Positions 27,229 through 46,864 of a stretch of DNA of 64,000 nt are shown one piece after another. Each line of letters opens with the position of its first letter. Positions within the stretch are counted from its first letter, which is position 1. The stretch comes from Escherichia phage vB_Eco_Tribble, in sequence record OX016465. One strand, written 5' to 3'. A program made the position numbers and the translations under genes. The notes beneath the pieces were generated by a model, which ran no database searches, was not told where the DNA came from, and saw only the letters and a program-made list of their open reading frames with translations.

Positions 27229-27289
27229 AAGCCCTCCTATATAAGATATAGTATAAGGTACTCTTCCCTGAGCACCTTGTCAATACTAA

Positions 27290-27846
27290 TCAGTGTACCT
27301 CATACCAGCTTTTACCAACCTTACCAGTACCTGTAACAAGTGTTTCTTTCTTAAGACCTAAGTTCTTAGAAGCTTGTCCATAATACCAGTCAGTAACTGC
27401 CTTCACCTCTGCCGTCATACTTTCTGGGCATTCCCAACTTGTCTCGTCGTGATAGGAGCACAATAAACGAGCACCTATAGCTGGTTTACGACCGTTCAAC
27501 TTCATCAAACCTTCGTCAATCATACGACGGCAAGCAAGGTTAATTGCTTCATTCTGAACCTGCGCCTCACTACCCATAAGTGTGTAATTCAATAACTTAT
27601 GTGGAGATTTACACCATAACCACGCTCCAGCGACCTGAATGTACCCACCCTTAGCGATTGCAGCACTCTTGCCGAAAACCTCTTCTAATGCCTTCTTAGT
27701 GGCCTTAAAATCGGCTTCTAAGTTATCAAGTAGTTTCTTAATCTTTGGTAGACGCATATAGTAGGTCTGCTTAGTCAATGCACCTTCCTCTGTAGAAGCT
27801 GCCTTAATGGTTTTGGCAAACTTCTCATCACCTGCACCGAACAATA
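27290..27846 (-). CDS. DNA polymerase (family A), exon 2
   Basis: Begins with LFGAGDEK, completing T7-type motif B (T7: …IYGFLYGAGDEK…); contains HDE motif C (SYHDET). 5' boundary is a model. Confidence 0.65.
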
Positions 27847-28651
27847 CATCTGGTCAATACACTCGCAAGGTGTACCAGTTCTCTTATGAACTTCTCCGCA
27901 TTTCTACGGAGTGTCGGACTATATCACGTAGTAGTAATACTACCGTTGCACTTGGGAATGGTCATTAGCTTACCACCCTACTCTACTCAGTTCATACATT
28001 AAGTATGCTTTTCGATAGTCTCTGAACGTTTCTCTGTTAGGAACTCTAAAATACTATTATTTACTAAGGTATGCAATTGCTCTCTTCATGTTCTCTATAC
28101 TATCTGAGAACAGCCCAAGACCTCTGTTACAGTTGTGACACAGCATACCTCTTACCTGTCCTGTTTTGTGGTCATGGTCAACAACCAGCTTGGCTTTATG
28201 TCTTGAACCATCCATGATAAAACCTTCACCACCGCAGATTTGACACTTGTGACCACACTTACTTAGTAACTCTTCGACCTCTTCTCTTTCTAAGCCGTAA
28301 GTCCTTAAGTAATAGTTCTTTACCCTTCCCTTTTCTCCACAAGCAGAACTGCAATACGTCTGTCTTGCTGTTCTAGGTGTAAACTGGTTATTGCAACTTG
28401 GACATATTTTCTCTATGACACGACTTGCTGCTCTTCTGTCTACTTCAAGAACGCAGTTTCTACAACGTTTTTGATTGTACTGATATGGCTTAAACTCTTC
28501 GCCACATCTGGAACAAACTCTTTCTTTATAACCTGCCATTGTCTCTCTCCCATTTCTACTATAGGAGTCCTAACAGAGACTTCGCTGCTGATTACCATAT
28601 CTTTTAAGACTTAGGCTTCCAGCAATTCACAACGTTTTACATGCGCCACTG
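27847..28651 (-). mobile_element. Group I intron in the DNA polymerase gene, carrying an HNH endonuclease ORF
   Basis: Interrupts pol at motif B; R-like GTTCAGAGACTATC (plus 28014-28027) and S-like GATATAGTCC (plus 27914-27923); modelled exon 1 ends in U and intron ends in G. Confidence 0.6.
28057..28539 (-). CDS. HNH homing endonuclease (endonuclease VII-like), intron-encoded
   Basis: HNH core LVVDHDHKTGQVRGMLCHNCNRGLG; several CxxC zinc-finger pairs; lies between the two polymerase segments. Confidence 0.8.
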   Translation of the reverse strand: MAGYKERVCSRCGEEFKPYQYNQKRCRNCVLEVDRRAASRVIEKICPSCNNQFTPRTARQTYCSSACGEKGRVKNYYLRTYGLEREEVEELLSKCGHKCQICGGEGFIMDGSRHKAKLVVDHDHKTGQVRGMLCHNCNRGLGLFSDSIENMKRAIAYLSK

Positions 28652-30824
28652 ACGCATAGATACCATTCTTAGCCTTCTTACGGCCTTTAGTTATCTCGTG
28701 AAGGAGTTCCTCATCCTGTGTCTCTCTACAACGGATAATATCTTCTTCTTTGTTCAATGCAAAATAGATACTGTTAAGTGTATGCGCATCAGTACCTGTG
28801 TAGACTTCATACAAATCATTATCAGCATCGTAACGACAATATTTATCAGCCTCTGGATTTAGGTACTTATCAAGATGCTTGCAGTAGTATCGTCCATCAT
28901 CCTGTTTAGTGAACTCTACAAACTCTTTACCTTCAGTTACCGCTTTGGTGAAGTCTTTATCACCCATAAAGTTACACAGTAAAACAAGCTGTGCAGAGTT
29001 CTGGTCAACTGAAACGATATTAGTCCCTTCCTCACAAATCCACACCTCCCTCATAGGTGCTCCATAGACAGCAGCACCAGACGGTACGTTTACAATACCA
29101 TATTGTGTCATACGTCCAGTTGAAGTACCAAACACCATTGCACCAGCACTAAGGCGACCATCTGGACGAATCTGGTTCAACCAACCTTTTTCATCATCCT
29201 TTGAGTTCTCAATAGTTCTGCGTCGGTGCATCAAAGTATAGTACTTAGCAATCTTCTGTCCAAGTTCACCTTCAATCGTATCATAAGATGATTCAGTAAG
29301 TTTTGGTGAAGTACGGATTAAGCAAGGCTCAAGCAAATCTGTGTACTTCTTCACAGACCAGTTATGCTCAATGTACTGTACACCTTCATGTTCAACATAA
29401 CTCAAACCACACCGCTCAACCATTTCCTGCCACTTAGGATGTTTTGTAATCATCTTTTTATTGTCTTTGAAACGACAAACTTTGACAGGGCGACCATCAG
29501 AGTCTTTCTTGTAGTTCCAGTCATCTGGAATCCAACCAACTGATTTCAAGTAGTCTTTAACAACTGCTACCTGAGTCATACGAGAAACTTCAAACTCAAT
29601 TGGTGTATATGGTGCATCAATCAAACCTGTGTAGCGACTTGACTCAAGTTCAAAGTGGTTAACAACGTGGCTGTTATAATACTTCACAGTTTTAACTGTT
29701 TTTACTGGCTTCCAGTCTTTGCATTTCTTACCAATCTTTGCGTTCAACTCATTGCAAATTGCACGAGCATCCTTCATTGCTACAAAGCCTTCCTTGTACT
29801 CTTCACCAGTTACAGTGTTGGTTGGTGTATAGCAATTCCTTTTTTCAATGTTAAAAATCTTTGTAGTTGGCTTACCAAATGGTTTGATTTCGTATGTCTG
29901 CATCTCGCCATTACGTACCTGCTGACGATACTTTGTCTTAGGGTACTTGGTAATTCTTTTCAGTCCATCTGCATGACCAAATGTTTCAACATACTCATTC
30001 CAAGCTTTTGCAAACTCTTCTCCAGTAACTTTACCTTTAGTCTTAATAGTTGGAGGAAGATGTGGTTCAACTTCTGAAGCAAGCTCATTAGTCAACTTGT
30101 CAAGTTCCTTTACATGGAACTCCATAAGCTCTTTATCAGCTTTCCAACCATTGATAGCTTGTTGACTCATCCAGAAAGATGTTTCTTTAGCTCGCATGTA
30201 AGTTTCATAAGTGTCTATACCACACTTCTTAAGCTTGAGATACTCGTTATCAAGTGCCCGTTTAGTTTTGGCGTTAATACGGATATCTTCTACAACACGA
30301 GTGAAGATTTCTGCATTCCACACACCCCAATGTTCAATCTCTGGTTTACGGACACCAACACGAGCACCCCATGCAGCCAAACCATGAGCACCTTTATAAC
30401 CCTTTGGAGTTGGCCTATCCATCCACTGAACACGAGACTGGATAAGAGAATCCTGAAAGAAATTACTCCACGGCTTACATTTTGGATTATCAAAATTCCA
30501 TAAATCAGGTGCAATGTGATTGAAAACCCACCAGTCATATCCGAGACCATTATGGATGCAAAGACGTTTTGCCTTTAACGCAAACTCAATACCTTCTCGT
30601 AAGCCACCCTTAATGTACTTAGTGTACTTGTGACCGAGGATAGGCTCATCTGTAAAGACCCATACAGGTGGCTCTTCATCGTCAGATTTATAGTCTGCAA
30701 AGGCCATTACGTGAACTTTAGTGAACTCAAGGAGTAAACCATCAGTTTCTGTATCACCAACCAAATGTAAGTTTTTAAAATCTACGTTTTCCATTTTTAC
30801 TCCCTCTAAAACCATTAACCTCAT
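28652..30824 (-). CDS. DNA polymerase (family A), exon 1 with 3'-5' exonuclease domain
   Basis: Exo I motif LVGDTETDGL; polymerase motif A region (VSVDQNSAQLVLL); ends inside motif B (…RKKAKNGIY). The annotated ORF runs 14 codons into the intron before a stop at 28611. Confidence 0.75.
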
Positions 30825-43977: not shown

Positions 43978-45174
43978 ATGAACAAAGTACAGATTATTAA
44001 AAAGAACGGCTCACTCGAAGAACCAGATATCAAAAAAGTTTTAGCAGCAGTCACTAAGTCAGCTAATAGGGTTGGGTATAAAGAACTACCACCAGATGTT
44101 ACCCAAGCTCTTGAGTCAGCATTTATGAGGATTCTGGTAAAATCCACTAAGCAGAATAATTTACTCATTTCAGTAAATGATATTCACAGTATTGTTGAGG
44201 GTGCTTTGGCAGAAGTCAATCACGAGATTTATGAGTCTTACTCAACATATAGAAATTACCGTAAAGAAGTTGCTCAAAATTGGGATGAACTCTACCAGAA
44301 GACCAAAGATACACTCTTCTTAGGCGACAGAGAGAATGCTAACTTTGACAGCAGTTTAATTTCTACAAAAGGCTCAATTATTCGTGGTTACCTGACTAAA
44401 GAAATCTTTAAACAGTACCATTTAACACCAGAGGAACTTGAAGCCATTGAAAAAGGGTTTATCTATATCCATGATTTAAGAGACCTAATTTTTGGTGGTA
44501 TCAACTGTTGCCTGTTTGACATTGGTAAAGTGCTGAAAGGTGGCTTTGAAATGTCTGGCATTGAATACTGTGAACCGAAGTCTGTGCTGTCAGCCTTACA
44601 GGTTATTGGTGATGTAGTTCTTTCAGCAACTGCACAGCAATTTGGTGGCTTTACTTTAGCAGAGATTGATAAGGTACTTGTACCGTATGCTAAGAAGTCT
44701 TTAGTGTACCACTCAGAGAAAGCTGAAGAGTACGGAATCCCTAAAGAGCAACACTATAATTACGTAATGGAGCAATTACAGAATGAGTTAACACAAGGTT
44801 TCCAATCTCTTGAAATGAAACTTAACACTGTTCCTTGCAGTCGCGGTGATTTTGCATTTACTACTCTGACATTTGGTCTGTTGGAACCAGATATGCACAA
44901 TGAAGATAACCGTCTTCAGTTTATGATTGCCAATACAATCCTTAACGTAAGGATGAACGGGCAAGGAAAAAGCAAAAAACCTGTTGTGTTCCCTAAACTT
45001 GTGTATATCTATGAAGAAACGAGACATAAGCTTGATGTATGCCAAGCAAGGTTGTTTGAAAAAGCTATTGAGTGTTGCTCTAAAGCTATGTATCCAGATT
45101 TCTTAAGTGTAACTGGACATGGTGCTGTAGCAGAGGCTTTTGAGCGTTCTGGTAAGGTAATTTCCCCGATGGGT
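43978..45174 (+). CDS. nrdD: Anaerobic ribonucleoside-triphosphate reductase (class III), exon 1
   Basis: N-terminal ATP-cone; ends …VISPMG, matching E. coli NrdD …TPMG|CRSFL…; annotated ORF stops one codon later inside the intron. Confidence 0.75.
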
Positions 45175-45916
45175 TAACAAGCTCTATAGCTCATCTAAAA
45201 CGTGCCTAAACAGGGAAACTCTACAGATGTAGACAATCCTGTGCTAAATGATGTACGATGTAAGAAACTATACAACATAGGAGTCTTACATGCCAAACTA
45301 TCACGTCACTGAAGATGGAAAAGTCTTTAGGGAAAATGGTGTAGAGCTTACGCAGTGGAAATCCAACACTGGGTATATGAAAGTGAGGTTTTACGGTAAG
45401 AAGAATCGTGACATGTATGTCCACAGGTTAGTTGCTGAGAAATATGTACCTAACCCGAACAATCTTCCAATTGTAAAACATAAGGACGATAACAAACTAA
45501 ATAACCACGTATCTAACTTAGAATGGGGTACTCATTCTGAGAATGCTAAAGAAGGTTATGAGAATGGATGTTACAAGTTCCACAAGCGTTCATATGCCGT
45601 GAAAGCCACACACAAAGTGACAAAGGAAGTTATTGTTACTAAGTCAATACGAGAGTTATCCAATATACTTGGATACAATCGCAAGACCATCTCTTCAATA
45701 TTGAAGGGTGTAAAAGAGCATAATAACTTCGAATATGAGTTTGAATACATCTAAATGCCGAACGACTAACCGTGATGAATGTAGCGGTGTAGGGTCAAGC
45801 GACTCGAAATGGTACGCTACTTAGAAATAAGTAGAAGATATAGTCTGGACTTACTGGCGACAGTAAGCAGCTTGAATAAAGCGGGGTAAGCTTAGCGAAC
45901 TTACCTGAACAATAAG
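45175..45916 (+). mobile_element. Group I intron in nrdD carrying an HNH endonuclease ORF
   Basis: Exon 1 ends in U (…ATG GGT), intron ends in G (…AATAAG); P-like AACAGGGAAA (45209-45218), Q-like AATCCTGTG (45235-45243), R-like GTAAGAAACTATACA (45260-45274), S-like AAGATATAGTCT (45835-45846). Confidence 0.7.
45290..45754 (+). CDS. HNH homing endonuclease, intron-encoded
   Basis: HNH motif VHRLVAEKYVPNPNNLPIVKHKDDNKLNNHVSNLEWGTHSEN; AGGAG Shine-Dalgarno before ATG. Confidence 0.8.
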   Translation: MPNYHVTEDGKVFRENGVELTQWKSNTGYMKVRFYGKKNRDMYVHRLVAEKYVPNPNNLPIVKHKDDNKLNNHVSNLEWGTHSENAKEGYENGCYKFHKRSYAVKATHKVTKEVIVTKSIRELSNILGYNRKTISSILKGVKEHNNFEYEFEYI

Positions 45917-46864
45917 TGTAGAGCATTTTTATCATCATACCATAACGAATATGGTGAAGAGTTTTATGTAGGTCGTGCTAACATTGGTGCTGTATCTTTG
46001 AACTTACCAATGATTTACCAGTATTCTAAAGAGAATGGCTTAGATTTCTGGAAAGAGCTTGATAAGTACCTAGAAATGATTCGCAGCTTCCACAAGAAAC
46101 GTTACGAAATGATTGCTAATATGTCAGCAAGTTCTAACCCTCTTGCGTTCACACAAGGTGGTCTGTACAAAGGGAATAAGAAACCTACTGACAAGGTTGG
46201 CTGGGATATCGTGAAGTCCTTCACAGCTTCTTTTGGGGTTACTGCGCTTGATGAGCTATCTGTTCTTGCTGAAGGTAAACGACTTCATGAAGTTGGAAGC
46301 TGTAGTTTTGCATATGATGTTCTGGAATATATCAACATGAAGACTGAAGAGTTTAAAAATGAAGATGGCTTCTTATATGCAGTCTATGGCACTCCAGCAG
46401 AATCACTTTGTGGAACTCAGCTAAAACAGTTCAGAGATATGTTTGGCGTTATCAAAGGCGTTTCTGACAAGGAATACTTTACAAACAGTTTCCATATGAA
46501 TGTTGCAGCAGATATTACACCATTTGAGAAGCAGGACTTAGAAGAACCCTTCTTCCATATCTGTAGAGGCGGCAGAATCCAGTATGTAAGAGTGGCTAAC
46601 CCAGAAAACTTATCAGCACTTAAGAGTTGTATTACAAGAGGGATGTTGAAAGGTTTCTATCAGGGACTTAACTTTGACTTAGCAATCTGTGAACATTGTG
46701 GTAACAGACCAAAGGCTGATGCTGAAGAATGTGAGGTTTGTCATTCACACGATATCTCTGTGATTAACAGGGTGTGCGGATATTTGGGATGGACTAAGAT
46801 TAAAGGTGAATCCCGAATGAATGATGCAAAAATCGCTGAGATTCGCGACAGAATTTCTATGTAA
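45917..46864 (+). CDS. nrdD: Anaerobic ribonucleoside-triphosphate reductase, exon 2
   Basis: Frame open from 45917: CRAFLSSYHNEYGEEFYVGRANIGAVSLNLP aligns with E. coli CRSFLGVWENENGEQIHDGRNNLGVISLNLP; C-terminal zinc ribbon and glycyl-radical loop RVCGYLG. Confidence 0.75.
   Translation, partial: CRAFLSSYHNEYGEEFYVGRANIGAVSLNLPMIYQYSKENGLDFWKELDKYLEMIRSFHKKRYEMIANMSASSNPLAFTQGGLYKGNKKPTDKVGWDIVKSFTASFGVTALDELSVLAEGKRLHEVGSCSFAYDVLEYINMKTEEFKNEDGFLYAVYGTPAESLCGTQLKQFRDMFGVIKGVSDKEYFTNSFHMNVAADITPFEKQDLEEPFFHICRGGRIQYVRVANPENLSALKSCITRGMLKGFYQGLNFDLAICEHCGNRPKADAEECEVCHSHDISVINRVCGYLGWTKIKGESRMNDAKIAEIRDRISM

Follow-up and report, generated by a model that had tools for sequence, protein, structure and literature searches.

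We examined a DNA polymerase gene and the element that interrupts it in Escherichia phage vB_Eco_Tribble (sequence record OX016465), using a stretch of 64,000 nucleotides (nt) that we call the window. An initial annotation had proposed that this gene is split inside motif B by a group I intron encoding an HNH endonuclease. Three open reading frames (ORFs) lie on the minus strand of the locus. The first (30824..28611) encodes 737 amino acids (aa) and ends in ...RKKAKNGIYASVAHVKRCELLEA (also written ...KAKNGIYASVAHVKRCELLEA), the second (28539..28057) encodes 160 aa and lies within the insert, and the third (27844..27290) encodes 184 aa, starts with TTG, and reads (L/M)FGAGDEK. The insert itself runs from 28651 to 27847 on the minus strand (805 nt), so that the last base of exon 1 is T/U 28652 and the last base of the insert is G 27847. 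The ORFs, the R-like and S-like elements of a group I core, the junction bases, and the 805-nt size had all been part of the initial annotation, and all were present. A 3.7 kb query covering the polymerase region was 100% identical to Escherichia phage Barry (LR880803.1), a Felixounavirus, i.e. a Felix O1-like myovirus, and the window allele is hereafter called Barry. The main features of the locus were as follows.

28652..30824, minus strand: DNA polymerase exon 1; the ORF starts at 30824, the last base is U 28652, and the exon has a partial Pfam DNA_pol_A match (17.6 bits).
27847..28651, minus strand: predicted group I intron, IA2-like, 805 nt, starting CAGUGGCGCAU and ending ...CCAGAUG, with omega-G at 27847.
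28611..28613, minus strand: in-frame UAA that closes the exon-1 frame, 13 codons into the intron and inside P5.
28057..28539, minus strand: putative homing endonuclease gene, 160 aa, in the P6a loop, with a Shine-Dalgarno sequence GGGAGAG at 28551..28545.
27290..27846, minus strand: DNA polymerase exon 2; its first bases are UAUUG (27846..27842), and it has a partial Pfam DNA_pol_A match (27.2 bits).

GenBank places the polymerase start at an ATG at 30794, which has a good Shine-Dalgarno sequence (GAGGGAG). The spacer after the gene in Barry is only 61 nt long (window 27229-27289).

Approximately 261 records of Felix O1-like (Felix-like) phages share this polymerase gene. A search with the insert alone divided them into 40 records with the full insert and its ORF, about 56 that matched at the two ends only (ORF-less, 268-311 nt), and the remainder, which were unmatched; about 96 of the ~261 records carry the insert. 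The conceptual exon junction matched many relatives in one piece, including ESCO45, momo, skuden, wV8, and Erwinia phages. Uninterrupted alleles read ...GGC ATC TAC GCC C/TG TTA TTT GGA GCC GGA GAT GAG AAG (GIYA LLFGAGDEK; the slash marks the insertion point), and insert-bearing alleles read ...TAT GCG T/(insert)/TA TTG TTC GGT GCA GGT GAT GAG AAG. When the window was aligned with the uninterrupted genes of relatives, the ends of the insert coincided to the base with the alignment gap, a match far beyond what chance would produce. The ORF-less form measured 268 nt in Escherichia phage REP8 and 311 nt in Shigella phage Tf and Salmonella phage Mushroom, with core identities to Barry of 92.7-97.4% in the 5' segment and 99.5% in the 3' segment. 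The insert of EC6 was 99.5% identical to that of Barry in DNA and 100% identical in endonuclease protein.

Joining 30824..28652 to 27846..27290 restored a frame of 2730 nt that encodes 909 aa without an internal stop. Neither half reached the Pfam DNA_pol_A cut-off of 34.3 bits (17.6 and 27.2 bits), while the C-terminal 404 aa of the joined protein scored 58.9 bits. The joined protein aligned to residues 517-638 of T7 gp5, for which a structure has been solved, and the alignment was unbroken across the junction (AKTFIYGFLYGAGDEK; RKKAKNGIYALLFGAGDEKF in the window vs RDNAKTFIYGFLYGAGDEKI in the T7 DNA polymerase). The segment is motif B, the O-helix of family-A polymerases. The proposal that the joined ORFs rebuild a T7-type motif B was thus borne out by the comparison with gp5. 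The predicted spliced product reads ...KAKNGIYA-L-LFGAGDEK..., with NGIYALLFGAGDEK as the junction-spanning peptide. No Shine-Dalgarno sequence was found before the exon-2 TTG (27844), whereas the polymerase ATG and the endonuclease ATG each have one. Because of this lack and the results with the joined protein, a separately translated C-terminal fragment is unlikely.

The insert was searched with the Rfam group I model RF00028. At the gathering score (50 bits for RF00028), neither this model nor any other in Rfam matched anywhere in the whole window. Permissive filters revealed two collinear, sub-threshold RF00028 matches in Barry, at 28624..28511 (P4-P6, 23.8 bits, E 0.0013) and at 28068..27894 (P7'/P9, 15.2 bits, E 0.46). 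The ORF-less alleles of Tf, Mushroom, and REP8 matched the full model (positions 1-253) with 61.7-62.9 bits (E ~1e-13). Barry falls below the threshold because a 483-nt ORF interrupts its peripheral loop P6a, and not through the absence of a ribozyme. The covariance-model scan that the initial annotation had suggested as a check was therefore passed by natural ORF-less alleles, with Barry itself giving only partial matches. A genuine ribozyme can thus be hidden from routine Rfam annotation by an ORF in a peripheral loop, and the call rescued by ORF-less alleles of relatives.

Two other kinds of intervening element were considered and rejected. RF00028 aside, a scan to E 10 gave four weak Rfam matches (E 0.16-7.5), which belonged to small nucleolar RNA families and a togavirus element and included no group II intron family. 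A group II intron was rejected on this result and on the nature of the insert ORF, an endonuclease VII (EndoVII)-type nuclease. An intein was rejected as well, as the exon-1 frame reaches a UAA 13 codons into the insert and the sole Pfam match of the insert ORF is Endonuclease_7.

A secondary structure of the intron was drawn from the Rfam alignment and family comparison. Helices P1 through P10 could be drawn, with P2 absent, and 87 of 87 proposed pairs were canonical in Barry. Its predicted elements, all on the minus strand, are listed below.

28641..28657: P1, formed by exon AUGCGU (28657..28652) and guide GCGCAU (28646..28641), with a U.G pair at the 5' splice site.
28651..28647: P1 loop CAGUG, the intron strand of P10, which can pair with exon-2 UAUUG (27846..27842).
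28586..28634: P3 5' strand (CGUUGUG, 28634..28628), J3/4, P4 (UGCUGG/UCAGCA), and P5/P5a.
28616..28594: P5/P5a hairpin.
28568..28579: P6/P6a 5' strand UCUCUGUUAGGA, pairing with 28042..28031 (12/12 complementary).
28031..28042: P6/P6a 3' strand UCCUAACAGAGA, completing a 12-base-pair (bp) stem with the ORF in its loop.
28014..28027: R element GUUCAGAGACUAUC (R-like GTTCAGAGACTATC), comprising J6/7 and the P7 5' strand GACUA (28020..28016).
27954..28007: P7.1 hairpin (28007..27993), linker GAGUAGAGUAG, and P7.2 hairpin (27978..27954), extra helices typical of IA2.
27950..27944 and 27943..27928: P3 3' strand UGCAACG and P8 hairpin, the latter with a compensatory change.
27925..27916: S element GAUAUAGUCC (S-like GATATAGTCC), which holds the P7 3' strand UAGUC.
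27911..27894: P9 hairpin with a GAAA loop.
27891..27878 and 27877..27851: P9.1 and P9.2, followed by the terminal omega-G at 27847.

In this structure, P7 is GACUA/UAGUC and P3 is CGUUGUG/UGCAACG. The subgroup was assigned by layout, and the predicted RNA is IA2-like in that it has no P2, has both P7.1 and P7.2, and carries its ORF in P6a. IA2 introns are recognized by P7.1 and P7.2 lying between P7 and P3' and joined by a conserved G-U-A-containing linker (PMC3428280); in Barry, the two hairpins lie between P7 and P3' and are joined by the conserved GAGUAGAGUAG.

The splice junction was deduced from the same comparisons. Only joining after U28652 and G27847 restores the Ala-Leu-Leu of uninterrupted alleles; moving the junction one base either way would give Ala-Val-Leu or Ala-Ser-Leu. 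This is the junction favored by the initial annotation, and it also places the U28652.G28646 pair in P1 (AUGCGU/GCGCAU), the omega-G at 27847, and a P10 of 5 bp (CAGUG/UAUUG, 5/5 paired). The predicted ligated exons read ...UAUGCGU/UAUUGUUC... (also given as ...UAUGCGU/UAUUGUUCGG..., with the slash at the junction). As these positions were deduced and not read from RNA sequencing, a real intron might instead use other splice sites, through a shift of a few bases or a cryptic site. We give this very little credence. A shifted junction would forfeit the conserved Ala-Leu-Leu and would lose either the U.G pair of P1 or the terminal G, whereas P1 and P10 were invariant in 9 of 9 Felix-like alleles, and the RF00028 alignment of the Tf allele puts P1 on the same bases.

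Covariation was assessed at two evolutionary distances. Among the 9 distinct Felix-like alleles, 99.9% of cells paired, compared with 26-44% when partners were slid by 1-3 columns, a figure that is biased and partly circular, as the structure had been drawn from the Barry sequence. Two pairs changed on both sides (P6, U-A to C-G, in the REP8 and BPS17W1 alleles; P8, U-A/C-G), three changed on one side yet stayed paired, and only one cell was broken. The remaining variation sat in loops and bulges. Most pairs were invariant within the clade and so are uninformative either way.

More distant introns were found with the 20-mer GTTCAGAGACTATCGAAAAG, which spans the R element and J7/7.1 and has exact copies in 48 viral contigs of the IMG/VR collection (listed lengths 6.6-236 kb). 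Most of these contigs (L011-L058) are unrelated to Felix-like phages. The set forms a widespread IA2 intron clade with the same conserved joints, freely covarying stems, and other host genes, and some of its introns carry ORFs in P6, P8, or P9. Thirteen of the introns had Barry's architecture with different stem sequences; P3, for instance, was CCUCUUG/CGGGAGG in L028, CGCAUUG/CGGUGCG in L012, CUUCGUG/UGCGAAG in L027, and CCUAUUG/UGGUAGG in L043. Each of P3, P6, P7.1, P7.2, P8, and P9 occurred in 8-10 distinct versions, which were 95-100% paired with their own partner vs 46-66% with the partner from another lineage, although only the P3 strands lie at a strictly fixed offset from the invariant anchors and those of the other helices were chosen by eye. 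P4 and P7 never varied among the 13 introns and are uninformative. These counts came from anchor-based strand extraction; a MAFFT alignment was not used, since it misaligned the variable hairpins, and the P8 boundary of L029 was set by hand.

Taken together, the RF00028 match of the ORF-less alleles, the precise and optional insertion, the structure, and the covariation uphold the interpretation of the insert as a group I intron. Our data make it very likely that the Barry polymerase gene contains a functional IA2 intron, predicted to be spliced at U28652/G27847. Several observations weigh against this conclusion. In addition to the partly circular pair count, the invariant pairs, the strands chosen by eye, and the lack of a full-score Rfam match described above, the stability of the ORF-less RNA was not distinguishable from that of shuffled sequence (folding-energy z -0.68, with the input offset by 22 nt; local hairpins were recovered). 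GenBank lists the two polymerase exons as separate coding sequences without an intron feature, and splicing itself is something that we infer.

The GenBank records of two polymerase coding sequences and a separate ORF, along with the in-frame TTG at the start of the downstream part, would also fit a truly split polymerase, in which a free-standing endonuclease gene lies between separately translated halves that assemble without splicing. We consider this very improbable. In more than 50 relatives, the insert measures 268-311 nt, lacks the endonuclease ORF altogether, and scores above the group I model threshold, and the helices of the insert covary. Moreover, the interruption splits a Leu codon within the O-helix/motif B, and the TTG has no Shine-Dalgarno sequence. 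Hardly credible is a decayed intron remnant, spliced inefficiently and tolerated via low-level splicing or another polymerase: the decay or loss of the endonuclease in some alleles would agree with it, but no allele has a disrupted core helix, some pairs show compensatory changes, most of the variation lies in loops, the carrier phages are cultured, viable isolates, and only a single family-A polymerase was seen in the locus.

The 160-aa ORF within the intron contains three CxxC pairs in its N-terminal half and C99xxC102, D121 H122 D123 H124, R130, C134xxC137, and N138 in its C-terminal half. It matched Pfam PF02945 Endonuclease_7 (E 5.9e-20), PHROG "endonuclease VII" families (E 8e-43), and, among solved structures, the catalytic domains of Hpy99I (E 2.5e-7) and T4 EndoVII. 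In the literature, EndoVII/Hpy99I-type ββα-Me nucleases make up the DHHRN family of homing endonucleases, whose definition centers on F-CphI (PMC6083498), and every element of the DHHRN motif (CxxC, D-H-(D)-H, R, and CxxC-N at the C-terminus) was found in the ORF. Of the HNH endonuclease originally proposed, the endonuclease was retained and the classical HNH class was not, as Pfam placed the protein in PF02945 (EndoVII/DHHRN type). These results suggest that the ORF encodes an EndoVII/DHHRN-type ββα-Me homing endonuclease, with its activity and target predicted from these resemblances. Its nearest relatives outside the Felix-like phages were the polymerase-insert ORFs of the T7-like phage Jarilo (51%) and of Yersinia pestis phages (46%). 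In GenBank, the ORF is labelled 'DNA polymerase I' in both Barry (BARRY_0093, LR880803.1) and EC6; the wrong label in Barry was inherited by BLAST from EC6.

Allele comparisons revealed a pattern of mobility, with presence or absence of the intron at one precise site, co-converted flanks, and three allele classes. Empty insertion sites are common among relatives. Where the intron is present, the endonuclease gene is intact (Barry, EC6), frameshifted (VpaE1), or deleted in two ways (the 311-nt and 268-nt forms). In Tf and Mushroom, the polymerase backbone was 93-100% identical to that of intron-less wV8, while both 30-nt windows flanking the intron were 90-100% identical to Barry; the intron cores were Barry-like as well. 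REP8 combines an exon 1 like that of ESCO45/skuden with Barry-like sequence in the first ~90 nt of exon 2. Such flank mosaics are short tracts of co-conversion, as homing would be expected to leave. The VpaE1 insert (780 nt vs 805 nt) is a decaying copy, in which the frameshift splits the endonuclease (L009 709-1169) into a 101-aa N-terminal zinc-ribbon piece and a 78-aa C-terminal catalytic piece with a TTG start.

In the mechanism we propose, the polymerase gene would be transcribed as one pre-mRNA, in which the intron RNA would fold into P1-P10. An external guanosine would attack after U 28652, and the freed 3'-OH of exon 1 would then attack after the terminal G 27847. The ligated mRNA would encode a single polymerase of 909 aa; on unspliced RNA, translation would stop 13 codons into the intron. 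When a relative with an intron-less polymerase allele infects the same cell, the endonuclease would presumably nick or cut that allele close to the insertion site, and recombinational repair would copy the intron and short exon flanks into it.

A free-standing HNH homing-endonuclease gene (with an AP2 domain) lies right after or overlaps the polymerase 3' end in many relatives, whatever their intron state (L001 3836-4369; L002 3864-4400; L004 3339-3842; L060 3911-4423). A second polymerase intron was considered for SPT-1/GEC_vB_B1-type relatives, in which this region is ~500 nt longer, and was rejected, as the extra DNA is the free-standing downstream HNH gene.

The closest known counterparts are introns of T7-like phages. 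IA2 introns with nuclease ORFs in P6a have been shown experimentally to splice in the polymerase genes of SPO1, SP82, Bastille, Pf-WMP3, PhiI, and W31 (PMC3428280), and for those of PhiI and W31 both PMC3428280 and PMC6083498 cite Bonocora & Shub 2004. Together with homologous introns in Jarilo and a Yersinia phage, the PhiI and W31 introns confirm that there is precedent in T7-like polymerase genes, as had been proposed. Pectobacterium phage Jarilo (L010 3190-3838) and the Yersinia phage (L059 ~1019-1699) each have a homologous IA2 intron that carries a homologous EndoVII-type endonuclease gene; the intron interrupts the Phe codon of the motif-B segment AKTF, 11 nt upstream of the site equivalent to Barry's. 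Their inserts are annotated as split polymerase genes or are unannotated. The PhiI/W31 insertion is described as "site 881" (PMC3428280), which does not readily fit the motif-B site of Jarilo and the Yersinia phage.

Introns of this T7-like group (PhiI/W31, Yersinia Berlin-type, and Jarilo) resemble that of Barry in their family-A polymerase host gene, their IA2 layout with P7.1/P7.2, and an endonuclease ORF that starts in P6a and encodes proteins 46-51% identical over ~117 aa. Their P9.1 hairpin, GUUCAUAAGAGAAC, is identical to Barry's, and the introns of Jarilo and the Yersinia phage interrupt the same motif-B coding stretch. They differ in several respects. The T7-like hosts are podoviruses, whereas Barry is a Felix O1-like myovirus, and the Barry insertion, inside the Leu codon after AKNGIYA, lies 11 nt downstream of the one in Jarilo and the Yersinia phage, which splits the Phe codon of AKTF. 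The Barry ORF ends before P6a closes, while the T7-like ORFs extend into J6/7-P7, and the N-terminus of the Barry endonuclease bears an additional CxxC module of ~40 aa. It is conceivable, if rather doubtful, that the intron and its endonuclease jumped between these unrelated phage families by recognition of conserved motif-B DNA and were re-seated at a shifted site, and that the abundant ORF-less Felix-like copies are still mobilized in trans, be it through relatives that carry the ORF or through the free-standing HNH gene downstream of the polymerase. If true, these two processes would together provide a case of target-site shift and collaborative homing in nature.

Other characterized systems share part of this architecture. 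The introns of cyanophage Pf-WMP3 (I-PfoP3I) and of SPO1, SP82, and Bastille (I-HmuI, I-HmuII, I-BasI) are also IA2 introns in phage family-A polymerase genes with nuclease ORFs in P6a (PMC3428280). A stop codon lies early in these introns, as in Barry, and P2 is likewise absent in Pf-WMP3. Their splicing has been shown experimentally, whereas that of Barry is predicted; they are inserted at positions 674/676 of E. coli Pol I instead of in the motif-B region, and their endonucleases are classical HNH enzymes rather than the EndoVII/DHHRN type. F-CphI and the DHHRN family (PMC6083498) share with the Barry enzyme the C-terminal EndoVII motif with all of its conserved residues. F-CphI, however, is free-standing beside an intron, whereas the Barry enzyme, known here from its sequence, is encoded inside one. 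The td, nrdB, and nrdD (sunY) introns of T4 also belong to IA2, occur in an enterobacterial phage, and have optional endonuclease ORFs in peripheral loops, but their host genes differ from the polymerase. T4 intron endonucleases are GIY-YIG and HNH enzymes and thus belong to other families than that of Barry.

In the literature on Felix O1-like phages, we found passing mentions only, and no description of the host gene, junction, structure, subgroup, or allele series. The Felix O1 genome report gives an uninterrupted polymerase of 906 aa and reports no introns (PMC3185647). Two later papers describe endonuclease genes as "inserted into genes" but do not speak of introns (PMC3728262, PMC4837284), and another lists "two introns" among the noncoding RNAs of a phage without detail (PMC9951933). 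One sentence of Fang et al. 2018 (PMC6083498) calls the EndoVII-motif proteins of JH2, EC6, and FSL SP-010, whose copies of the element nearly match that of Barry, "intron-encoded". Elements of this type are thus familiar, and this one has been recognized in print in passing, though without characterization. It is an ordinary mobile element of a well-known kind, and the current understanding of group I introns is unchanged. Its recognition corrects ~100 Felix O1-like genome annotations that list a "split" DNA polymerase, and many such phages are candidates for biocontrol or therapy. It also extends the set of intron insertion sites known in family-A polymerase genes, within a clade that shows stages of the homing-endonuclease life cycle: the empty site, the intact gene, a frameshifted gene, and two independent ORF deletions.

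A similar element was observed elsewhere in the window, in the anaerobic ribonucleotide reductase gene nrdD, with the following features.

43978..45174, plus strand: nrdD exon 1, ending ...SPMG with last base T 45174; the flanking ORF is 43978-45177.
45175..45916, plus strand: probable nrdD intron, starting UAA and ending at G 45916.
45290..45754, plus strand: HNH_3 ORF of 154 aa within the intron.
From 45917, plus strand: nrdD exon 2, CRAFLSSY..., in frame with a 288-aa ORF (45998-46864).

This insert gave two collinear partial matches to RF00028, at 45210-45293 (15.6 bits) and 45687-45867 (33.1 bits, E 5.6e-6), and a P1 helix GAUGGGU/GCUCAUC could be drawn. It is probably a second group I intron. 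The ORF sizes match those of the 'split nrdD' of phage UAB_Phi87 (PMC4837284).

Finally, two records named 'Campylobacter phage A132/A126' (MG065664.1, MG065668.1) contain an ORF-less Felix-type polymerase intron at 98.5% identity. These records probably hold Felix-like (enterobacterial) phage sequence that was mislabelled or derives from mixed assemblies.

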